Shown here one piece after another: positions 2,496-61,139 of a stretch of 64,000 nucleotides of DNA. Each line of letters opens with the position of its first letter. Positions within the stretch are counted from its first letter, which is position 1. The translations under genes were made by a program, and so were the position numbers. Under the pieces are notes generated by a model that worked only from the letters and a program-made list of their open reading frames with translations, was not told where the DNA came from and made no database searches. This DNA comes from Octopus vulgaris. Its lineage: Eukaryota. The stretch is taken from the NCBI GenBank assembly GCA_951406725.2, contig OX597819.1:25296001-25360000 (forward strand), given 5' to 3'.

Positions 2496-3577
2496 TTTCG
2501 GAGAAATCGCGCCTGTTTGAGATTATCTCCCTTCTCAGCGGAAGTTACTCGTAATTTCAACAAACCGTTTATTTATTCGTGTCTCAAAAAGGAAAATACT
2601 TTTCATAAGTCAAAAATTTAACTTGCATGGTTCATTTATCCTCACTTATCACTTATTTGTTAATCCCTGATCCGGGATAACACAGTGCACTCATTGTAAT
2701 TCGCATTACGCTTATCATAAATTTATTTCTGATAACACTGGCCGCAGATCAGTCGAAGATTATTCTTGGCCAACAAAAGCCCGCTCCATCAACCATCCGC
2801 AGTGCTCATAACAACTTGGAATCTCGGAAGGAAATCCATTTTCCCATATGTTCTATCATATCATTCAGTTATCACTAATTCCTTTAATGCAGCGTATTAA
2901 TATACATGTATTTAATAGATCTTCATTCGTCTTTATTACTCGTACGTATCTGTACATAAAAAAAAGGACAAGTCAAAAGAGCCTGGAGGATTGTGTGCAT
3001 GCAGTACAGCACAGAAGGAACTGGAGTGACCAAGCAAGTCGACCAGTGGCCACATTTGGCCGAATTAAAACTAATTAGAATCAACGTAGAATCAACTAAT
3101 TAGAATCGACGCCTCACATATTCTCACTATCCTTATCTAAGTTAGTCTTCTATTTCAGTTTCAACCTTATCCTAATCACTTTATCTCCGTATGGCTTCCA
3201 GTTAAGCTGGACTAGAGTGTTTTTCTAATATACATGTATGCGTGTGTGAGTGGATATGTATGTGTGAGTACGTACATGCACACATATGTTTGTGTGTGTA
3301 TATGTGCATGTACGTATACATGGTTGTGTTTGTACGTATGTAGACGTTATGAACGCAGGAGGTTTATGTCTATATATTATGAGACTATATATAGTTGCGT
3401 GTATATATATATATGGTTGCGTGTATTCTTTATCCTTTATCTTCATTTTGTTTTTCTACCTATTAGAATAAATTCCCTTTTATTCAACGGTTTTTCATAG
3501 CGTCTATTGTCATTAATAGCCGACGAGAATGCATCGTAGCTCTTCGCTCCGACATTCGAAACTCCGAACACTACAAT

Positions 3578-4083
3578 GACATGGATGTTTCTGGGTCTTA
3601 ACCCGTCGTCAGCCCAGGATAGTGAGATCTGCTGATTGAGGCGACTGTCACGTTAAGTTGACAGTATACAACCACTCTATTGCTCCACCACCGCTCAAGT
3701 CTCTTTGAGACATTTAGAAATTCAATATTTCTAATTACGGTGACCAGTGAATAGATTTCACTGTAAATATATATGTTTGTGAAGGCTAGATAGGCGCCTC
3801 AATCAGCATATCTCACTATCCTGGGCTGATGACGGGTTATGGCCTAGAAACATGCGTGTCCTCAGGTGTGAATCTTGGCTGGTAGGGATGCTTGTCCCCC
3901 CATTCACAAATTTAAAGACACAGAAAATGTGTCAAAGCCGAAGGAAGCGTTCGATGCTTCCTAGGGATAAACAGCGGTGGTGTAATTCCCATACGGGACT
4001 GTCAAGTTAATTTGACAGTATACAATCACTCTATCACTCCACCACCGCTCATGTCTCTTTGAGACATTTAAAAATTTAATATT

Positions 4084-4086
<3 letters not shown>
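3578..4086. mobile_element. PLE-terminus-like element with inverted and direct repeats and two hammerhead motifs
   Basis: 3578-3643 is an inverted copy of about 3795-3860; 3643-3733 is repeated directly at about 3997-4086, followed by (AT)n. Confidence 0.7.
3820..3866 (+). ncRNA. Type I hammerhead ribozyme (complete minimal core)
   Basis: CCTGGG-CTGATGA-C-GGGT tatg GCCT-A-GAAAC-A tgcg T-GTC|CTCAGG: 6-bp helix I, helix II, short helix III, GUC cleavage triplet ending at 3860. Confidence 0.75.
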
Positions 4087-4130
<44 letters not shown>

Positions 4131-4139
4131 CATATATCT

Positions 4140-4392
4140 TTATGTGCGCGCGTGTGTGTATGTGTATGTGTGTGTCTCTGTTCTGTGTTTATCTCCCACC
4201 ATCGCTTTGATAACTAGTGTTGGTGTGCTTACGTCACTGTAGCATAGCAGTTCGGCCAAAGAGCCCGATAAAATAATTATCAGGCTTAAAAAAAATAACT
4301 ACTGGGGTCGATTTATTCGACTAAAAAATTCCCCAAGGTGGTGCCCCAGCATGACCGCAGTCTAATGACAGAAAAGTGAAACATAAAAAGAT
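4140..4392 (+). mobile_element. SINE family A, 3' half
   Basis: Matches the 3' half of the full copy at 63570-63975 (gttcggc..aaaga, ggggtcgatt, ccagcatg.ccgcagtc.aatgac). Confidence 0.8.
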
Positions 4393-4500
4393 AGGGCTAC
4401 ATAGACATTCGTTTCTTTGAAACAGTTATAGTTGTTACATTTGGAAAAAGGAACGGCTACGTAAGGCTCCCACGTTGTCTTAGTTATGCTATAGAGTTGT

Positions 4501-6500
4501 TGAGAGTGGCAGTAGTGTGTTGTGATGAAGGTATCAGTGGGAGTGTGTGTTGTGATGAGGGTAGCAGTGGGAGTATATATTGTGATAAAGGTAGCAGTGG
4601 GAGTGTGTGTTGGGATGACGGTATCAGTGGGAGTGTGTGTTGTGATGAGGGTATCAGTGGGAGTGTGTATTGGGATGAGGGTAGCAGTGGGAGTGTGTGT
4701 TGTGATGAGGGTAGCAGTGGGAGTGTTTGTTGTGATGAGGGTATCAGTGGGAGTATATATTGTGATAAAGGTAGCAGTGGGCGTGTGTGTTGTGATGAGG
4801 GTAACAGTGGGAGTGTGTATTGTGATGAGGGTAGCAGTGGGAGTATTTGTTGTGATGAGGGTATCAGTGGGAGTATATATTGTGATAAAGGTAGCAGTGG
4901 GAGTGTGTGTTGGGATGACGGTATCAGTGGGAGTGTGTGTTGTGATGAGGGTATCAGTGGGAGTGTGTATTGTGATGAGGGTAGCAGTGGGAGTGTGTAT
5001 TGTGATGAGGGTAGCAGTGGGAGTGTTTGTTGTGATGAGGGTATCAGTGGGAGTATATATTGTGATAAAGGTAGCAGTGGGCGTGTGTGTTGTGATGAGG
5101 GTAACAGTGGGAGTGTGTATTGTGATGAGGGTAGCAGTGGGAGTATTTGTTGTGATGAGGGTATCAGTGGGAGTATATATTGTGATAAAGGTAGCAGTGG
5201 GCGTATGTGTTGTGATGAGGGTAACAGTGGGAGTGTGTATTGTGATGAGGGTAGCAGTGGGAGTGTTTGTTGTGATGAGGGTATCAGTGGGAGTATATAT
5301 TGTGATAAAGGTAGCAGTAGGAGTGTGTGTTGTGATGACGGTATCAGTGGGAGTGTGTGTTGGGATGAGGGTAGCAGTGGGAGTGTTTGTTGTGATGAAG
5401 GTATCAGTGGAAGTGTGTGTTGTGTTGAGGGTAGTAGTGGAAGTATGTGTTGTGAAGAAGGTAGCAGTGAGCAGTAGGAGTGTGTGTTGTGATAAAGGTA
5501 TCAGTGGGAGTGTGTGTTGTGATGACGGTATCAGTGGGAGTGTGTGTTGTGATGACGGTACCAGTGGGAGTGTGTATTGTGATGACGGTATCAGTGGGAG
5601 TGTGTGTTGTGATGACGGTACCAGTGGGAGTGTGCATTGTGATGAGGGTAGCAGTGGGAGTGTTTGTTGTGAGGAAAGTATCAGTGGGAGTGTGTGTTGT
5701 GTTGTGGGTAGCAGTGGGAGTGTGTGTTGTGTTGAGGGTAGTAGTGGAAGTATGTGTTGTGAAGAAGGTAGCAGTGAGCAGTAGGAGTGTGTGTTGTGAT
5801 GAGGGTAGCAGTGGGAGTATATATTGTGATAAAGGTATCAGTGGGAGTGTGTGTTGTGATGACGGTATCAGTGGGAGTGTGTATTGTGATGAGGGTAGCA
5901 GTGGGAGTGTTTGTTGTGATAATGGTAGCAGTGGGAGTTATTGTTGTATTGAAAGTATCAGTGGGAGTGTTTGTTGTGATGAAGGTAGCAGTGGGAGTAT
6001 ATATTGTGATAAAGGTAGCAGTGGGAGTGTGTGTTGTTATGAAGGTATCAGTGGGAGTGTGTGTTGTGATGAGGGTAGCAGTGGGAGTGTTTGTTGTGAT
6101 GAGGGTAGCAGTGGGAGTGTGTGTCGTGTTGGACGTAGCAGTGGGAGTGTTTGTTGTGATGAGAGTAGTAGTGGAAGTATGTGTTGTGAAGAAGGTAGCA
6201 GTGAGCAGTAGGAGTGTGTGTTGTGATAAAGGTAGCAGTGGGAGTATATATTGTGATAAAGGTATCAGTGGGAGTGTGTGTTGTGATGAAGGTATCAGTG
6301 GGAGTGTATGCTGTGATGAGGGTAGCAGTGGGAGCGTTTGTTGTGATGAGGGTAGTAGTGGGAGTGTGTGTTGTGTTGATCGTAGCAGTGGGAGTGTTTG
6401 TTGTAATGAGGGTAGTAGTGGAAGTATGTGTTGTGAAGAAGGTAGCAGTGAGCAGTAGGAGTGTGTGTTGTGATAAAGGTAGCAGTGGGAGTGTGTGTTT
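4501..6500. repeat. 30-bp minisatellite (about 65 units) with higher-order structure
   Basis: Unit gtagcagtgggagtgtgtgttgtgatgagg, aligned at 30-bp period in the sequence. 7-bp insertions occur near 5470, 5777, 6204 and 6451. Confidence 0.95.
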
Positions 6501-6929
6501 GTAATAATGATAGCAGTGTGTGAGCGTATGTGCATGTGTGTGTGTGCGTGTGTGTATGTGTGTGTGTGTTGTAATGATAACGCTAATAACGTTGGTGATG
6601 GTTGTTACGCAGATTAATGTATGTTGGTTGGGGATGTTAGTTGTTATAAAAAACAGAGGCGGTGGTAGTTGCAGGGCTGAGTTCGGAGATGAATGGGGCT
6701 AGTGGAAATAGAAGTCGTTGTAACGTTGTTGTGGGATGAATATTGTGATGAATGAACGTGTTGACTTGCGTTAATCATATTGGTAGCTGCATTGGAAACC
6801 ATAGTAATATTTGTGAGCTTTTTGAAGGTGGTCGTAGAGTGACGACAGCTGTTATGATGTAGCGGTGGTAAGAGTAGTGGTTGTAATTACAATGGTGTGT
6901 TTTGAGATGAAGTTAGTAGTAGTAGTCGT

Positions 6930-7378
<449 letters not shown>

Positions 7379-8485
7379 GCTGTTGTTGTTGTTATTCAGT
7401 AGTCTTATTTTTATCACGTGCTTTCTTCTTCTTCTTCTTCTTCTTCTTCTTCTTCTTCTTCTTCGTAGCTGTGGTGATTGCTGTCATAAGCAGTTTTGCC
7501 GTGCTAGTAGTGGTAGGAGTAGCCGCAGTGGTTGTGATAAACAGTGCTGGGCAGTAGTAGTGGCAGTAGCTGGGGGTCGTTGTTTTATAGTGTTGCGGTT
7601 GTAGAAGTTGTAGTAGTTGAAATGGTAGTAGAAGAAGTAGTTAGTGGTAGCAATAGTAGAAATAGCCTCAACATTTGCGGTAGTTATAGTAGAAGTAGTA
7701 GTAACAGTAATATAATACGTAGTTGTAGAAGTAGCAGTAGTAGGGGTAGCAGGTGTTATAAATAGTGCTGAGGTGGTAGTAATGACTGGTTTCTCTGATA
7801 AACCGTGCTGAGGTCGTCGACGTAGTAGTGGTGGTGGAAATGGTGATGGTAGTGGTAGTAGTAGTAGTAGTAGTAGTAGTAGTTGTAGTAGTTGTAGTAG
7901 TAGTAGTAGTAGCAATAGTGGTAGTAAATATGGTAGTGATAGTAGTAATGGTGTAGATGTTGGTAGTAGTAGTAGTGCTAGTAGTAGTTGTAGTTGTAGT
8001 AGTAGTAGTAGTATTCATGGTAGTAGTAGTGCTAGAGAAGTTGCTGGTAGTAGTAGTTGTTGCTTTGATAAACAGTGTTCAGGTTCTAGTTGTAGTGGTG
8101 ATGGTTGTGTGATAGAAATAGCTGCGGTGGTAGTAGTAACAGTTGTTTTTGAGATTATGGTAGCCGTTGTAGTGTTAGTGGTTGTCGTTGCTGAGATTGT
8201 TGTTCGGATGGTAGTAGTAGGTGGTGGTGGTGGTTTCAGTGGTGTTAATTGTTGCTACTGTTGTGGTGGCTATTGTTGTTGTGGTTGTTGTTGTTGTTAT
8301 TGTGCTTTTTGTAACGGGTGTGGCTGTAGTAGTAGTCGTAGTTGGTGACGTGGGTGTGGTGGTCGTTGTGTTGCGAGTGGTAGTTGTGGTGGTTATGATA
8401 GTGGCATTTCTGTGGTTGTTATTGTAGTTGTTGTGGATTGTGTAAGTCTAGTTGCTGCTGCTGTTGTTGTTGTTGTTGTTGTTGT
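7379..8485. repeat. Degenerate (GTA/GTG/GTT)n trinucleotide low-complexity region
   Basis: G/T-rich trinucleotide runs; source of the poly-V/T/S ORFs. Confidence 0.9.
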
Positions 8486-8936
8486 TCTTCTTCTTCTTCT
8501 TCTTCTTCTTGTTCTTCTTCTTCTTCTTCTCCTCCTCCTCCTTCTTCTTCCTCTTCTTCTTCCTCCTTCTTCGTCTTCTTCTCCTCCTCCTCCTCCTCCT
8601 TCTTCTCCTTCTCCTCCTCCTCCTTCTTATTCTCCTCCTCCTTCTTCTTCTTCTTCTTCTTCTTCTTCTTCTCCTCCTCCTCCTCCTCCTCCTCCTCCTT
8701 CTTCTTCTTCTTCTTCTCCTCCTCCTCCTTCTTCTTCTTCTTCGTCTTCTTCTTCTCCTCCTCCTCCTCCTCATTCTTCTTCTTCTTCTTCTTCTTCTTC
8801 TTCTTCTTCTTCTCCTTCTCATCCTCCTCCTCCTCCTCCTCCTCCTCCTCCTCCTTCTCCTCCTCCTCCTCCTCCTCCTCCTTCTTCTTCTTCTTCTTCT
8901 TCTTCTTCTTCTTCTTCTTCTTCTTCTTCTTCTTCC
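8486..8936. repeat. (CTT)n/(CCT)n polypyrimidine tract
   Basis: About 450 nt almost purely C/T on the + strand. Confidence 0.95.
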
Positions 8937-9224
8937 AATCAGGACTCACGCCATTAGCCATAAAGAGTAATCTCTAATTCGAGCCTACTCTAAGCTACTA
9001 AGAATGTGTGTGACAACTTGAAGATCCACCCACCCACCACACGTGATAGACTGGCGGTTGCACGGGCGCGAAAGCTACGTTGTTATCCTCATTCCGTAAA
9101 CGGTGGCTTTTAACGGGTGGAGAGCTGAACCATTCTGGGGCACAGAGGATTCGCAATCTAGACAAGGTTCTGAAAGTTTACCACATCATAGTGGGTTACA
9201 CCATGGTCCCGCTGCTTTGTGGCA

Positions 9225-18309: not shown

Positions 18310-18460
18310 ATTTACATTATTTACATTGGACAGATATGTGTCCTCATCTTGTTTGTTGTTTACACAACGTTTCAGCTGATTTACTCTCCAGTTTTCATCA
18401 GGTGTCCTGGTAGAATTTTGAACCCTACCTTGGGTTCTCATTCCTAAAGTATCTTTTACT
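18310..18460 (-). mobile_element. TA-flanked element with hammerhead (18362-18405)
   Basis: Minus strand ACAC-CTGATGA-A-AACTGG..TCAGCT-GAAAC-GTT|GTGT. Same family as 60870-61040. Confidence 0.7.
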
Positions 18461-22554: not shown

Positions 22555-23165
22555 ACTTCTAAAATAAGGGCAAAAGAAAAATTCTAATGCCAAATATGCC
22601 GAAAAAAGACAAAATTGTCAATACCCATTATAATTTATGCGTCTCGAAACAAACCGATAGAAATTTCTAAAAAATCCGTTATTACCGTATTGGTCCAATT
22701 TTCGGGGTTAATTCATAAGAATTTTCCCCTCCTCAGCGATAAATACGTAAGACATAAATGAAATACTTACTCATACCCATGGAAAAAGCAAGCACTAAGT
22801 TCCGAGCAGACCTAAGTACCCCAAATATATCCAAAATAGAAAATCTTCGGCACATCTCGAGACACGTGTGATTCGAACTAGAAACTTTCTCAGAGTGAGA
22901 GAATCCAGAAGTGAACACTATTAAATTTACAACTAATGTAGGATAAAATTTTTTAGAAAAAAATTTTTACCAATGGCCAGCATATCAAAAAATACCTTTA
23001 AAGGTTAAATTTATAAATAACTTATAAAATAATGGCAAATGAAAAATTCTAATGCCAAATATGCCGTAAAAAGACAAAATTGTCAATAACATTATAATTT
23101 ATGCGTTTTTGATATGCAGGCCATTGATAAAATTTTTTTCTAAAAAATTTTATCCTACATCAGTT
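22555..23165. mobile_element. TA-embedded PLE-terminus-like element (direct plus inverted repeats) with hammerhead at 22682-22742 (-)
   Basis: 22555-22640 is repeated at about 23018-23105, and 22935-22985 is inverted at 23110-23160. Minus strand TTATCG-CTGAGGA-GGGG..CCCC-GAAA-ATTGGACCAAT-A|CGGTAA. Confidence 0.72.
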
Positions 23166-23528
23166 ATATGTATATATTAGATAATATTTCTTGACATTTA
23201 TGCCAAAAACTAATCCGAACAATATCGAATGAAATGAAGACCACTAATCAGTCTTCCCTTCCGCCTCTTCCTCTTCCTCCCCCCTCCTCCTCCTCCGCAT
23301 CATCATCATTATCATCTCCGATGTCTATTGACAATAACTTGAACTTGTCTTTAGAACGATCACGGATGCCCTACACATCTCGCTTCGTCATGGCTGCCCT
23401 GATTTGATTAACTGCTGCAGCTCTACCTGTCCTTGACACTTAGATCTTGACCATTGTCTTAGAAGAATGCCCCCGATAAATTGGATACCGAGTGACAACG
23501 AGATGTCTGAGACATCTCTGACCAACTA

Positions 23529-23731
23529 TAATTAAATTTAGTTTTATCACTCTGCAATTCAAAACGGGAAATGCTGTCTGATATGAACATCAGCTGCATT
23601 TGTCTCGAATGGGTTTACCACCTAAATCGGAAGGTCCGCTTCCAGAAGATCTTTGAAGCTAATTTCTATATCATTACGCAGATTTTTCAAATGCTCATTG
23701 TACACTAAAATAACATCCATTTACAGCCCAT
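23529..23731 (-). repeat. Inverted near-identical copy of 20711-20913 (hAT internal segment)
   Basis: Base-by-base reverse-complement match with only a handful of differences. Confidence 0.9.
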
Positions 23732-25454
23732 TTACTGTTAAAGAGTAGCGGATATCTTCATCACTATCTTGTTCCACAGAATGAGTCTACCATTGAATTG
23801 CTCATTGGTTCACTGAAGGCCATCGACTGCATCTGAGTGTAGTACCTACCGAGAGATTTGGTCATGGATTAGCATGGATCCAGGTTTCATATCCGTAAAT
23901 GACGTTTGTCTTGATGAGTAAAAAGAAATAAAGGTACATGGATGAAAACACAGACATGCGGATAGAGAGGATTGTTAGAAAGAAAACCATTTGTTAAAAC
24001 GGATAAGTAGTAGGAATCTGTGTGTTCCCTGTGTCTGTTAGGAACAACAGCTAAATCTTCCTCAAAACGTGTCCTATAATCTTAAACAAGGAAAAAGAAA
24101 ATAGTCTATGTTGTTTTGCATGCCGCTATATAGATGCGATGGGCGCGACTGCATTGCTTTTCATCACAAATCTGCTCTATCACGGTTGGTATGAAAATTA
24201 AGAACCAATGAATCAATTTGTAACCAACAAAGAGTGTTAGCATTAAAGAATGTATGTAAATAAGCCGGATGAATAGGTCACCATATTTGACAAGGTGACT
24301 GCCTGTTTATTTTCTTCCATTAAACCAAGGCAGTGCACTTGGACAAACGGTAGCACCTTAGACAACTGCTCTCGTGGTACTTCATTGACGTACACGAGTT
24401 CAAATAGGTAAATTGTTATAAATAGTTAAACAGAAACAGGATCAAATCAGCACTGCATGCGTTACATGTAATTCACGAATGTTTCGAATCTGCTTCACAT
24501 CTTTCACTTATCACTACCACAACCATTTCGCCTTTGGATGACTTTGGTAGTGTTCTAAAAGAAAGTGAATTGTTGGTAGATTTGGATAGAACACCTCGTG
24601 GTATATGTTCTGACCATTACTGCATTCTGAATTCAGACCCTGCCGAGCTCAACTTTACTATTCATCCTTTCAGGGTCCATGAAAAAGTACCAATCGAAGG
24701 AAGAGGCTTGACGGAACTGTCAGACGGAGATACCTTCCGTATTTGTTCCAGCTCTTTGTTTTCTGATAGCAACGTCTCTCAATCGATAAAAAAGAAACCT
24801 CACCAGCCTAGTATAAATGTTGATCAGATTCTCTACAATGGCGATGTTCCAGCATGGTCACTGCCTCTGGCTGAAACCAAGAAAAGAATAAAAGAAACCA
24901 AATACATGGTCTTATAAGAAATAGTAACGAAGCAAGTCGAATCTAACCGAGCAAATAAAGTGTTGAACAGAAATGTCAAAAGTCTGCTGTGCTGCATGGC
25001 ATTGTCAAAAGGTTAAATTTCATAAGCCGACTTCAATGTTATAACATTAAATTCAATCAGTGAATTTAGTGTCATAACATTTAGTAGTTATCATGGGCAA
25101 AACACATCACATGTGCAGGTCAAGCGATCATTGTATATACTACAAATGATTATTAAGTTGCATTTCTATATTGACCATATTTTATGGCATATAAGGCGCA
25201 CTTATTTCCCAAGAAAATATCATAAAACATCATCTCAAATCCTATTTAAGCTGCTGGGCCTCCCTTAAGATAATTTTGTCATTCATGCTCACTAGAGTAA
25301 GCTAATTTTAATTCAAACGGTCTTTTCAGTACAGTAATATAAAGTAATGCTTTCTATACAGTAATATACAGTAATGTTTTCTGCTATAGCCAATGTACTT
25401 TTCTGCTATGGCTAAGGTACTTTTGTAATATTTTGCAATTTACTACTAAATATT

Positions 25455-25667
25455 GGTTTCATATTTTGGCACAAGGCCAGCATTTTCGGGGGAGGGGCTA
25501 GGCCAATCAAATTGACCCCAGTGTTCAACTAGTACATATTTTATCGACCCCGAAAGGATGAAAGGCAAAGTGGACCTCGGCGGAATTTGAACTCAGAACG
25601 TAAGGACGGACGAAATAGCGCTAAGCATTTTGCCCGGCGTACTAATGTATCTGCCAGCTCGCCGTCT
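25455..25667 (-). mobile_element. SINE family B
   Basis: tttatcgaccccgaaaggatgaaaggcaaagt.gacctcggcggaatttgaactcagaacg...tgccagctcgcc. Confidence 0.88.
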
Positions 25668-26594
25668 TAGATTGTTTTAAATATTGCATGCTTTAATGCA
25701 CTAAAGTATTTTATCGTGAATATGCACTGCCGAAATTGGGATGCGTCAAATATGAACGTGTGTCTAAAACGCCATCAAATGCTGTAGGTTCTCTTCTGTT
25801 ATTATGCTTTATTTTCTTAGTTGCTTAGAATAGGAAATACAACACTTGAAATATTTCTTGGGAGTCTGAAACCGGTGGGCAATAAGGGAAGACAAAATTG
25901 CAATTCGTGTGTTGATACCATAAGCAGTGTACTAAGTTATATTTTCACCAGAGACTCAGCTCAATTGAGTACATCCGTATCGGACTTCAGTCAGCCAAGG
26001 TTAACTATACATGTAAACGTGTATGGGCTGTTCTGGACAAGCACATTTTTGTGGAAGATGAACATTTGTCTGAGTATGAAAGTCTCTCCTCCACACGCCA
26101 CTCATATTGACCAAAGTAAAGGTCACCGACTTTGGACGATACAACTTGGCGTCAGTGTCGTTGGAGGTGTTGCTTGTCATAACACAAAGCGGTGAAAGAA
26201 ATACCGCATATCATCTAACCCGACCCTCTAATATTTCCGCCATTAACGACCGGGATTGGTTCTTTTTTTATATATTTTAAGTCCGAAAAAATTAAATTAA
26301 AATTAAAAGTTGACCTCAGAGTACTAACTACTAAAGCAAATTCTACGAGACATTCTATCCGATGAGCTAACTGCCATTTTACCGCATCTTGTTCATTGTT
26401 TAACTACATGATATCATTGAAGCACAAATGTTTATAAGTTTATAACCAGCATTCATTGTTAATGAAACGTTTCTCTAATCAGTAGGGCAAAGTAAATTCA
26501 TGTAAAGTTAAGTTTTATTTATTAAAGGCTGCCGCAAGAATAGCGAACTATTTAGAACGAACATGATCGTCCATATACGGTAGCTCACTGATAC

Positions 26595-26806
26595 CCTCTT
26601 TTAGTTGTTTCAGTCATTTGACTGCGGCCATGCTGGAGCACAGCCTTTAGTCGAGCAAATCGACCCCAGGACTTTGTCTTTGTAAGCCTAGTACTTATTA
26701 TATTGGTCTCTTTTGCCGAACCGCTAAGTTACGGGGACGTAAACACACCACCATCAGTTGTGAAGCGATGTTGGGGGTGTGACAAACAGACACACAAACA
26801 TATATA

Positions 26807-26851
<45 letters not shown>

Positions 26852-27028
26852 TTATATATATATATACGACGGGCCTCTTTCGGTTTCTGTCTACAAAATC
26901 CACTCACAAGGCTTTGGTCGGCCCGAGGCTATAGTAGAAGACACTTGTCCAAGGTGACACGCAGTGGGAATGAACCCGAAACCATGTGGTTGGTAAGCAA
27001 GCTACTTACCACAGCAACTCCTGCACCT
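26595..27028 (-). mobile_element. SINE family A, full length with internal (CA)n(TA)n
   Basis: Near-identical to 49040-49480 and to the reverse complement of 63570-63975. Confidence 0.9.
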
Positions 27029-27782
27029 TTTTTAATTAAAATCTAGTGTTTGAAAACAAAATAATTGAATAGTAACGCTGTAGTTAAAGCTGCTTGAATG
27101 ATATCTGATTCTGTTATTAATTTTGCAACGATTTGTGTGAGGATTTACAATTTTAAAGTTGATATATGGAAACCAGGTGCTAATTAACTAGTGGCTGATA
27201 GTTATAAACAGCTAATGAAGGGAAGTCTGCAATAATTATTACTAAGTTAAGCAAATTTCCTTTGCGCAAATTTACTTTCCTCAGATTTTGTTCCATCGTT
27301 TCTTTAATCAACTTTTCTTTCTATGAACCTGTTGCACCTGAACAGTGAGGTATTTATTGGCCTATTTAGAGATATCTTGCAGAACCAAGTGCATCAATCT
27401 CGTTTATTGTACTAGCTAGAAGATACCTTATTACGTCTTCGAACTTTTCTGATTACGAATAATTGTGAGAATGATCAAAACGTGAAGTAACTATATAGTT
27501 ATGTAGCTACTGCATAATTAGTCAATCAAATACTACAAAAATAACCCAGATAAATAACTAGTAAGGTGTATTTTTTTTACCTTTATAAATTAATAGACTT
27601 CACACTAGAAAACTAATCTTCAAGTTCTTTCTATTACTAACTTGATTCAGGCGATTAGCATCAAAAGCATTGACGTTGCTGATTATTGTAAGAAAGTATA
27701 GCGTCTTTTTCTTCTTTACCTTGGTAGAAGAATTCTAAATTATCGATGCCAGATTTACTGCACATATCCGCAGGAAACGTAC

Positions 27783-27784
<2 letters not shown>

Positions 27785-27841
<57 letters not shown>

Positions 27842-27886
27842 GTATGTATGTATGTATGTATGTATGTATGTATATATGTATGTAGG

Positions 27887-27944
<58 letters not shown>

Positions 27945-28050
27945 TAGGCGCGCTCGCACGCCTGTGTGTACAATAGAAAATATACAAGATTTGAATTATA
28001 TACATGCACACGTACATATATATATAATACATAATATACAATATATGTAT

Positions 28051-28117
<67 letters not shown>

Positions 28118-28800
28118 GTGTGTGTTTTATTACATTGTTACAGACTAAAATTTCGAATTATTTGAAATATAGCCGTCGGAAAAGACTTCAATGCAATTTT
28201 TATTAGTTAGTTAATCTTTAAAGTTGAAAGACAAAGCTAATCTTTTGGGATTGGATCACATACTGCAAAGGATAGTAAGAACCATTGCATACACAGACAG
28301 ACATGTAATATATATATGCATACATACATACATACACCCATGCACCCACATATATATATATATGTATATATAGATACATACATGCATAAATTTATATACA
28401 CACGCACAAACACACATATATATATGTATATCTATACGAAAATGTATACGCACACATATATATCTATACAAAAATATATATGCACACACACATATATATA
28501 TCTGTCCATCTATATGTGTGTGTGTGCGTACACACACATACACACACACACGCACGTGCACACACACACATATATATATAAAACACTGCCTAGTCTAGAA
28601 ATTGAATCCAGAGTCCTTGTAGTCATAAGCCATTAGCCTTAACCACTAGGCCACCCCCTTTACATGTATACGTTTATATAGATGTATGTTTATGTCTATA
28701 CATATACAGATGTATGCATATTTATGTATGTCTGCATATCTATATATATACATGTGTGTGCGTGTGTGTATGTGCATGCCTGTGTGTGAATATATGCATG
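27785..28800. repeat. Compound (TA)n/(TATG)n/(CA)n microsatellite field
   Basis: Seen directly in the sequence. Confidence 0.9.
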
Positions 28801-29372
28801 TGTAGCTGTGCGATTATTATTTTGTGTAACTCTGTATTCCTTAAATCGTCAGCAGTGTATCTGAAAAATCGACACTCTGCAATTTCGAACTTTGATAAAT
28901 TCTTGCCTGAAATCATCGAACTCCTGTGACTTTGTAGCCAACAATAAACAGCTTAGAGCTACATAATAAAACTCATTTGACCCATGCATTACTGAGCTAA
29001 TTCACATATTACTAGTCTGACAGTTGTTAACAACAATGAAATACACTGACTGGCCGTGAATATTACTTTTGCTAAATAAACATATAATATAAGAGATAGG
29101 TAGACTTGATTATTTTTCTAAGAATACTCGGTTTTCCTTTTTGCTTTGTAATTTTAAAATCCTACTGTAAACATACAACGTTAATTGCATTTATTTTAGT
29201 TTCGCAGTTGTTCTGGATTACCATAGTCCTGTTGCGTAGACTTTGCCCAGTTCTCAAATTTAATACCTCCTTTTGAAATAACCAACGATGTGCTCAATAT
29301 CAAAAAATATTTTGTGTTTCGAGAAATGTTTGGCTGCTATTTCTATCTTCTATCTCAATCTTCCTTCCATAT

Positions 29373-29699
29373 TTAAAAAACTCCGCCGGTTACGACGACG
29401 AGGGTCCCAGCTAATACGATCAACGGAACAGATTGCTCGTGAAATTAACGTGCAAATGGCTGAGCATTCCACAGACACGTGTACCCTTAACGTAGTTCTC
29501 GGGGATAATCAGCGTGACACAGAGAGTGACAAGGCTGACCCTTTGAAATACAAGTACAACTCATTTTTGCCAGCTGAGTGGACTGGAGCAACGTGAAATA
29601 AAGTGTCTTGCTCAAGGACACAACGCGTCGCCGGGAATCGAACTCACAACCTTACGATCATGAGCCGAATGCCCTAACCACTAAGCCACGCGCCCTCAC
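29373..29699 (-). mobile_element. tRNA-head CORE-type SINE (family E) with TSD
   Basis: TSD tccttccatat at 29362-29372 and 29700-29710. Head gtgagggcgcgtggcttagtggttaggg on the minus strand. Confidence 0.9.
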
Positions 29700-29748
29700 T
29701 CCTTCCATATAGGGACTCAGTAGTTGACACGTTTGCTTCAACCAGTAA

Positions 29749-30140
29749 GTGGAGGCGCAATGGCCCAGTGGTTAGGGCAGTGGACTCGCGGTCGTACGAT
29801 CGCGGTTTCGATTCCCAGACCGGGCGTTGTGAGTGTTTATTGAGCGAAAACACCTAAAAAAAGCTCCACGAGGCTCCGGCAGGGATGGTGGTGATCCCTG
29901 CTGTACTCTTTCACCACAACTTTCTCTCACTCTTACTTCCTGTTTCTGTTGTACCTATATTTCAAAGGGCCGGTCTTGTCACTCTATGTGTCACGCTGAA
30001 TATCCCCGAGAACTACGTTAAGGGTACACGTGTCTGTGGAGTGCTCAGCCACTTACACGTTAATTTCACGAGCAGGCTGTTCCGTTGATTCGGATCAACC
30101 GGAACCCTCGTCGTCGTAACCGACGGAGTGCTTCCATTCA
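29749..30140 (+). mobile_element. tRNA-head SINE family D, full length with TSD
   Basis: TSD tcaaccagtaag at 29738-29749 and 30141-30152; A/B boxes in the head. Confidence 0.92.
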
Positions 30141-58010: not shown

Positions 58011-59096
58011 TAGGGTTTGGACAAAATAATGGAAACAACTAGCATCATAGCATTATAATTTTAAAATATCTATAAAACCGTCAAAAGCTTGTTTATTTTT
58101 ATGTTTTTTGATTTATTATTAGAGTTACTTAATATGTTTTGCTAAAAGTGCTGTTTCTTTTCAGATATCATCAGAAAAAGGTAATTAAAATTCGTGAAAT
58201 TCGGACTTTCAAAGAGGTCAAATTGTTAGTGCACTTATGGCAGGCGCTAGCATAACGAAAACAGCCAAAATCTTTGGTGTATCAAAAAGTACTGTCTCGA
58301 AAGCAATGACAGCCTTTAAGAAAGAGGGAAAAACCTCCTCGTCGAAACAAAACTCCGGAAGAAAACCAAAACTTTTAGATAGGGACCGTGGGACTCTTAC
58401 GCGAAATGTTAGACAGGATTACAAAAGTACAGCTCCCAAAATTACTGTAGAGCTTAATGAACACCTTGAGAAACCAGCTGCCACAAAAACTGTTCCTCGG
58501 CAACTGCACAAAGCCGAATTTCACGGGAGGACTGCAATCAGAAAATCATTACTTTAAAAAACAAAGGTTGCAAAGCATTTAGAGTGGAGTAAAAACCTGC
58601 GGGATTGGTCTCTAGAGCAGTGGAAGCATTTTATTTTCTCGGACGAGTCATCCTTTATCTTATTTCCGACCACCGGCTGAGCATACGTGAGGAGACAGCC
58701 AAAAGAAGCATTTGATCCAGACTGCCTTCTTCCAACTGTTAAACATGGAAGAGGATCTGTGATGGTTTGGGGTGGGGTTATATCTTGGATATCCGCCGAT
58801 CCAATGTTTTTCCTTCATGGCAGAATTAATAGTCTAGACTATTTAAGCATTTTATCTAATCAAATTCATCCTATGGTTGCGGAACTGTTTCCAGAGGAAA
58901 GAGCAACCTTTCAGGACGATAATGCACCAATTCACACAGCTAAAGTTGTTACTGAATGGCACGAGGAACATTCTAATGAAGTTGAATATCTTATCTGGCC
59001 ACCACAGTCGCCAGATCTCAAAATTATTGAACACTTATAGTGCATTTTAGAAAAACAAGTAAGGATTTGATATCCTACACCATCATTACTACAAGA
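58011..59096 (+). pseudogene. Tc1-family transposon, DD34E transposase with premature stops, truncated by a SINE
   Basis: Left TIR after TA (agggtttggacaaaataatggaaac). Motifs SDFQRGQIV, SGRKPKL, IFSDESSF, PTVKHGRGSVMVWG, FQDDNAPIH, WPPQSPDLKIIEHL. Stops at about 58555, 58678 and 59038. Confidence 0.93.
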
Positions 59097-59330: not shown

Positions 59331-59926
59331 ATACTTCAAATCGCTGTTTTTTCACTATATCAATAACGGCGGATTTCGTCTTAGTATGCAGTTGCCAATG
59401 GATACTTGCTACTGACGAAGCTCAAAGCAGCAGAAATGCCCATTTAGCAAGGTCAGCGCCGCAGCTGGATGATTTTCGTCTGTTACTGATATATTTTTGT
59501 GCTATTTAACACTGTACATGTATAAGAAATTACGATAGATCGCTATATACATAACCCTGCATACACGTGTGCACGCGTGTGTGTACGTACACATACACAT
59601 TCATACATATGTATATATATATATATGTACGCGCTCATGTGTATGTATGCATGTTTGTACACATGTACACATCAGTAGAAAAATCAGCAAGTGAAATATC
59701 GGAGTGTTAAATATCCATATTTTAACCTTGATTTCATTTTTGCTTTCTTCTTTTTGTGCTATATTTTTGCAATGTAAGCGTTATCAGAGACGCGTTCGTA
59801 ATGTCCATAAAATGGCCTGACTTCTCATATTAAATCAATGTTAAATGTCTGTAAATATCTGTAACTGATTCTGACTCTGTGTTATATTTTACTTCCTTTC
59901 TTCAGAATGGTTAAATATCACTACTT

Positions 59927-60869: not shown

Positions 60870-61040
60870 TAGTTCGGTATTTAAGAGATGGGGAATTATG
60901 TACATTATTTACATTTACATTTGACGGATAGTTGTCCACATCTTTGTTGTTAACACAACGCTTTGGCTGATGTGCTCTCCAGCCTTCGTCGGGTGTGTTG
61001 GGGAAATTTCGAACCTGGGTTCTCATTCCTAAGCTATTTT
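60870..61040 (-). mobile_element. Second copy of the 18310-18460 family, hammerhead core decayed (60953-60996)
   Basis: Minus strand ACAC-CCGACGA-A-GGCTGG..TCAGCC-AAAGC-GTT|GTGT; shared tgggttctcattcctaa. Confidence 0.7.
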
Positions 61041-61139
61041 TCGATGTTTTTTTAAACCACAACTGACCATCAGGGAACTCTTTATTGCATTGCAACGTGC
61101 TGTGATAAAATGTTCCCCTATTTTCAACATATGTATGTG

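Follow-up and report, generated by a model that had tools for sequence, protein, structure and literature searches.

The 354-nt repeat unit and its hammerhead motif

The window analyzed here, a 64,000-nt stretch of the Octopus vulgaris contig OX597819.1, contains a non-coding, strongly folded repeat unit of 354 nt and 44% G+C (3643-3996, + strand), delimited by its 354-nt spacing, by folding and by a frame scan in which no stop-to-stop frame of at least 110 aa was found. The unit is repeated 1.26 times across 3643-4089; a partial second unit (3997-4089, +), identical to 3643-3735 at 84 of 93 positions, forms the right end of the insertion and abuts a (TA)n tract (4088-4126), followed by a multi-copy SINE-like repeat. 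Folded as a circle in the phase 3736-4089, the unit reached -118.1 kcal/mol (z -7.0), which was equalled by none of 100 shuffles. Neither a reverse transcriptase nor a GIY-YIG frame was detected at the locus or among 26 frames scanned in the window, out of 55 listed and one extra, and the repeat is likely a non-autonomous retrozyme of the Penelope type. The genome sequence is AT-rich, with abundant microsatellites. The SINE-like repeat itself (approximately 4150-4390) carries (TA)n(TG)n at one end and has copies near 26700, 43450, 45850, 49150, 50600 and 63750; it is reminiscent of an octopus repeat. Long G/T-rich tandem arrays with a strong strand skew occupy approximately 4500-9000.

A type I hammerhead motif (3820-3866, +) was recognized by a descriptor, and in the folded unit it sits on top of the long helix formed by 3775-3911. 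Helix I (3820-3825/3861-3866) has 6 bp including one G-U pair; the core occupies 3826-3832, the GAAA 3847-3850 and the triplet 3858-3860, with cleavage predicted after 3860. Our own type I descriptor, for which the minima were 4 bp in helix I, 3 in helix II and 2 in helix III, matched this motif at 3826-3860; it gave three matches in the window, as compared with two over 20 shuffled windows. Rfam returned no hammerhead, either at the gathering score or with E values up to 10. Plain energy folding gave the hammerhead fold in neither this copy nor the inverted one described below (z -0.5), a measure that is uninformative for motifs so small.

A preliminary description of this DNA had called the + copy complete and intact. 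Its helix I, core and triplet are indeed present, but the foot of helix II is flawed, so that "intact" is generous: one C and one A are unpaired at the base of this helix, and a G-U replaces the normal G10.1-C11.1 pair. With no clean pair at the foot of helix II, the motif may be a poor cutter.

Two further hammerhead-like motifs lie elsewhere in the window. One, a type I motif of another family (59405-59451, +), has a 7-bp helix I, a short helix III and a triplet ending at 59444, and its 3-bp helix II carries the same extra base on both sides. The other (18362-18405, -) is a minimal Penelope-type motif with a 4-bp helix I and no loop 3, and the repeat that holds it has a relative at approximately 60906-61041. 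Tc1/mariner transposase remnants were also found at 58198-59037 (+), with HTH_Tnp_Tc3_2 and DDE_3 in two separate frames.

The inverted arm, its family and the adjoining repeat

Head to head with the 5' end of the direct copy lies an inverted arm (3578-3649, -) that represents the 5' half of the hammerhead domain. The arm is the reverse complement of 3789-3860, with 63 identities in 72 nt (E 6e-20), and extends to the triplet from a point some 30 nt upstream of helix I, without the 3' strand of that helix. Beyond the triplet the alignment matches at just 3 of the 37 following positions, confirming the earlier report that the minus copy diverges after its GUC. That similarity stops at the cleavage site, as was also reported, holds for the outer edge of the arm, but not to the single base, since the flanking repeat also matches 3578-3581 and thereby allows five possible join positions. 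The arm and the tandem copy have diverged to a like degree (7/66 and 9/93, Fisher p = 1.0), which fits one insertion event. A stretch at 3101-3133 (+), chosen post hoc, resembles the sequence immediately 5' of the hammerhead (3786-3822) with a score of 38, versus a maximum of 36 in 300 shuffles, and has no ribozyme core downstream.

Family contigs from four runs (X1, X3, X4 and X13) and three organisms were placed on 3430-4092 at 80% identity, yielding 3094, 3160, 1555 and 356 contigs, respectively. The summed depth in X1 peaked at 713,000, which is not a copy number, as compared with 18-64 for single listed contigs; the unit thus belongs to a very abundant family. X13 is RNA only by guess, and the family contigs in it are no sign of expression. 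Scans with family-copy patterns gave no matches in metagenome contigs, viral contigs or prokaryote genomes, and neither the unit nor the poly(A) repeat described below has another copy in the window.

The family contigs of all four runs carry the letters of the arm at 3840, 3842 and 3845, and mostly also at 3856; at position 3608 they differ from the arm. By these letters the family has the helix II of the arm, and the variant in the + copy is private decay. The two copies had been described as differing in helix II while keeping its pairing. The family letters rule out covariation: the + copy decayed by transitions, from which G-U pairs arise automatically. The same contigs give the family a palindromic helix III.

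Across the predicted cut the depth did not fall (548 to 626 in X1, 6814 to 7380 in X3, 265 to 271 in X4, 122 to 218 in X13), and with arm and direct copy combined the upstream and downstream depths were mixed (2815/626, 8428/7380, 538/271 and 44/218, respectively). No pile of loose ends was seen at 3578 or 3860 among the 24 rows listed of 724, which leaves room for a small pile at 3860. In all four runs the depth drops about fourfold after 3682, to which this copy's own substitutions at 3681-3684 could contribute, and near 3680 contigs run into mixed, AT-rich flanks (25 in X3 and 16 in X4). The favoured end of the family therefore appears to lie near 3680, about 174 nt downstream of the cut, and not at 3860. 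A hairpin followed by an A/C-rich single strand precedes this apparent 3' end (3643-3680, 3997-4034), and the single strand is reminiscent of the site, likewise A/C-rich, at which the anole Penelope reverse transcriptase starts. Low depth at 3798-3889 might be taken to mean that most copies lack the ribozyme; we rejected this interpretation because diverged sister copies would escape placement at 80% identity. Ten contigs in X4 carry such a diverged sister sequence upstream of 3907 (window 3877-3907), which appears to keep the small hairpin at 3885-3898, with changed pairs, and to represent a second subfamily of the unit.

On its outer side the arm meets a different repeat, poly(A)-tailed and present in many copies, of which the 3' end (3446-3581, -) was delimited by contig depth and is cut short at 3578-3581. 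The preliminary description had not seen this second repeat; it had named an alignment of the DNA past the minus-copy GTC to the family consensus as a refutation, and that DNA is not of the hammerhead family. The summed depth over 3446-3581 is approximately 23,000-30,000 in X1, again versus 18-64 for single listed contigs, and here the repeat is present only as its last 136 nt. It carries an AATAAA and a folded domain (3509-3581, fold z -2.1) whose closing stem begins at the junction; its 45-codon frame had no Pfam match. Poly-T loose ends occur before 3451 in 27 X1 contigs, by which the repeat is poly(A)-tailed on the minus strand. Sequence and X1 contigs place a decayed A-rich tail, with approximate limits, at 3425-3450 (-); of this, 3425-3445 is probably a worn poly(A) tail, and a TA/TG-rich tract lies to its left.

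After 3581, 35 contigs in X1, 47 in X3 and 21 in X4 depart from the window sequence with a shared continuation. Among the 32 pieces listed (8226 more exist), 18 stop at 3581 and none crosses the arm-to-flank join, and we accordingly rejected this join as a regular feature of the family. That the DNA beyond the arm is unique, or belongs to the hammerhead family, was ruled out by the contigs together with alignment within the window.

Microhomology is present at both ends of the arm. At the outer junction the pieces end at 3581 and the arm reaches 3578, so that the 4 nt at 3578-3581, the final bases ahead of the predicted cut, belong to the poly(A) repeat as well; a 4-nt match has a chance of about 1 in 411. 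At the inner junction, where the arm and the direct unit meet in inversion, the overlap is 5 nt (3645-3649): the majority letter of the family at 3791 is C (2321 of a depth of 2356 in X1), which makes 3789-3793 the reverse complement of 3645-3649, and the latter also opens the direct unit. If ends were uniform over the unit, the edge of the outer overlap would fall on the predicted cut in 1 of 354 cases, the ambiguous interval taking 5 in 354. A search of the window revealed neither the inverted sequence from 3861 onward nor any of the sequence with which the poly(A) repeat continues. No target-site duplication was detected between the flanks beyond TA repeats and 6-7-mers in differing order, and decay could hide one. 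Along the minus strand the 5' half of the hammerhead comes first, then the cut site, then the truncated poly(A) repeat with its tail; both 3' ends point outward into TA-rich tracts. The right end (unit position 3735) sits 60 nt upstream of the inner end of the arm (3795).

Possible origins of the arm

In the interpretation toward which we lean, by a little, a non-coding 354-nt repeat with a hammerhead was inserted here and has since decayed, and its arm was copied by priming, or by template jumping, on a self-cut RNA end. A multimeric hammerhead RNA would have been copied from two DNA ends in a twin-priming geometry (PMC2912911). On the left, a DNA end finishing in GACA would have paired with the last four bases of the self-cleaved RNA, and extension by a reverse transcriptase from 3860 back to about 3790 would have produced the arm. 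On the right, a DNA end in the TA tract would have copied from 4089 to 3643, across a hammerhead still uncut; the 5-nt overlap at 3645-3649 would be where the two cDNAs were joined. Candidates for the left primer are genomic DNA of the neighbouring repeat, which taken separately we consider a tentative proposal, and the nascent cDNA of the poly(A) repeat switching templates, to which we give slightly less weight still.

This origin had been proposed from the position of the edge together with the helix II pairing. The edge at the predicted cut stands, and with its expectation of 1 in 354 under uniformity it supports a cut-end template; the pairing was decay, and the microhomology and the absence of a depth fall at the cut qualify the proposal. 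Further support comes from the 4-5 nt of microhomology at both arm junctions, as in 5'-inverted retrotransposition: about 70% of 5'-inverted L1 junctions have 2-5 bp of microhomology (PMC2912911). Animal retrozymes are described as giving linear self-cleaved monomers in vivo (PMC7229834), a palindromic helix III is the form described as active in dimers (PMC4209133), and weak priming at an RNA 3' end by a Penelope reverse transcriptase is recorded in vitro (PMC11167929). Against it, the same source, in its available portion, has reverse transcription of one reconstituted Penelope element starting internally, with cleavage dispensable and no reads ending at the cut. The cut-end template is weakened by the 4-nt ambiguity of the join and by its post hoc selection from a many-copy family, by a clearest family end near 3680, by the missing parts of both repeats not being nearby, by the lack of a target-site duplication other than TA, and by the flawed foot of helix II, with which the motif may cut poorly.

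An ordinary microhomology join, independent of cleavage and falling at the triplet by chance, explains the arm junction almost as well as a cut RNA end does, and we rate it as a serious contender whose probability falls somewhat short of even. It could have arisen by internal priming on uncut RNA, by a DNA-templated inversion copied from 3789-3860, by a later insertion of the poly(A) repeat that deleted the end of the arm, or by a later microhomology-mediated deletion. Microhomologies of 4 and 5 nt are typical of cleavage-independent routes (PMC2912911; PMC11702581, as far as the available parts of these sources go), templated and two-transcript L1 insertions being among the events described in the latter. 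Six TGTC sites occur in the 447 nt of 3643-4089, family contigs span the cut while the main family end is elsewhere, and in a family of so many copies some ends at the cut are expected by chance. Pairs of hammerheads on opposite strands 100-700 bp apart are also on record (PMC4209133, in part). Nevertheless, a chance join requires a coincidence of 0.3-1.4% per junction, and its two later-event variants need a second event that erased the missing sequence, of which no trace was found.

Ligation of RNA before retrotransposition is very improbable. Here the 2',3'-cyclic phosphate end would have been joined, by an RtcB-type reaction, to a broken poly(A)-repeat RNA, much as in U6/L1 chimeras, whose order and orientation (a 5' RNA that finishes at its natural end, then a 5'-truncated poly(A) element) the locus resembles (PMC6789731, in part), and retrozyme monomers are reported to be circularised by RtcB in vitro (PMC7229834, in part); such ligation, however, needs no shared bases, yet there is a 4-nt match (about 1 in 411 by chance), and no target-site duplication was found.

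A more specific form of the cut-end origin takes 3425-4089 as a single insertion, the hammerhead counterpart of U6/L1 chimeras, and we regard this as unlikely. After copying the final 130 nt of its own RNA, the reverse transcriptase of the poly(A) retroelement would have used four paired bases to switch to a multimeric retrozyme RNA at its ribozyme-cut 3' end, and from another DNA end an inverted copy would have been made of the more upstream part of the retrozyme RNA. Three observations would be explained by one such event: the missing parts of both repeats are absent nearby, the two 3' ends are directed outward to TA-rich tracts, and the right end at 3735 sits 60 nt upstream of the inner end of the arm.

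At stake are two questions, namely whether Penelope-type elements and retrozymes have their RNA cut by hammerheads in the germ line, and whether a template ever starts at the cut end. If the single-insertion interpretation were true, the locus would be a genomic fossil of germ-line hammerhead cleavage. The junction, at a single locus, is suggestive but ambiguous. Because the locus was picked for the coincidence, the odds hinge on genome-wide enrichment, and the many copies of the family permit a direct genomic test, i.e., a comparison of ends at the cut with ends at other TGTC sites. The new finding concerns the neighbour of the arm, a poly(A)-tailed repeat of separate identity that shares 4 nt with it; the hammerhead element, for its part, is an ordinary new member of a class already known.

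Comparison with known systems

No account of a poly(A) retroposon joined to a hammerhead-cut end turned up in the open-access literature searched, and the main text of an Octopus vulgaris repeat annotation, in its available part, contains neither "ribozyme" nor "retrozyme" (PMC13282606). Like the unit described here, animal non-LTR retrozymes are characterized, in the accounts available, by a type I hammerhead and a non-coding, folded unit of approximately 350 bp with less than 45% G+C in head-to-tail arrangement; mussel units measure 350-390 bp (PMC7229834, in part). At 354 nt, 44% G+C and z -7.0, the unit lies within the definition of a 200-400 bp non-coding folded unit with less than 45% G+C. 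The definition also asks for two or more successive units, each having a full hammerhead, and the locus has 1.26 units, so we file the unit as retrozyme-like. An "active" retrozyme dimer likewise has two full hammerheads (preprint 10.64898/2026.07.22.740005, in part), as compared with one here. One axolotl retrozyme motif is described with a mismatch at the foot of helix II like that of the + copy. The definition further includes expression as self-cleaved linear and circular RNA; at this locus cleavage is predicted. The animal retrozymes, as far as their available descriptions go, are without the inverted arm found here.

U6/L1 chimeras share with the locus a 5'-truncated, poly(A)-tailed partner in the same orientation, following an RNA with a cyclic-phosphate end (PMC6789731, in part); here that end is predicted, and whether the RNA stops exactly at it is ambiguous by four bases. 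In contrast to those chimeras, as available descriptions have them, the locus has a 4-nt microhomology, an inverted second segment and no target-site duplication that we could find, and its partner is the last 136 nt of a poly(A) repeat whose membership in the L1 clade would be a supposition. In the telomeric Terminons the hammerhead lies at the priming end, with telomeric repeats downstream (PMC6431247, in part).

There are also parallels with endonuclease-positive Penelope-like elements, from whose terminal repeats retrozyme-type units are said to derive in the part of the preprint available (10.64898/2026.07.22.740005). Their insertions are described with a tail of 30-40 nt between the 3' ends, as against 229 nt here (ends at 3860 and 4089), and the mapped starts of Penelope reverse transcriptase lie downstream of the cut, whereas the arm ends at it (PMC11167929, in part). 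In Penelope hammerheads, as characterized in 2014, A9 is followed by an extra base, helix III is palindromic and pairs occur on opposite strands, as is the case here (PMC4209133, in part). The same elements combine a partial tandem with an inverted, 5'-truncated copy at the 5' end of the tandem and use (TA)n targets, again as here (PMC8557442, in part), and by this analogy the inverted arm beside a partial tandem is known, standard Penelope anatomy.
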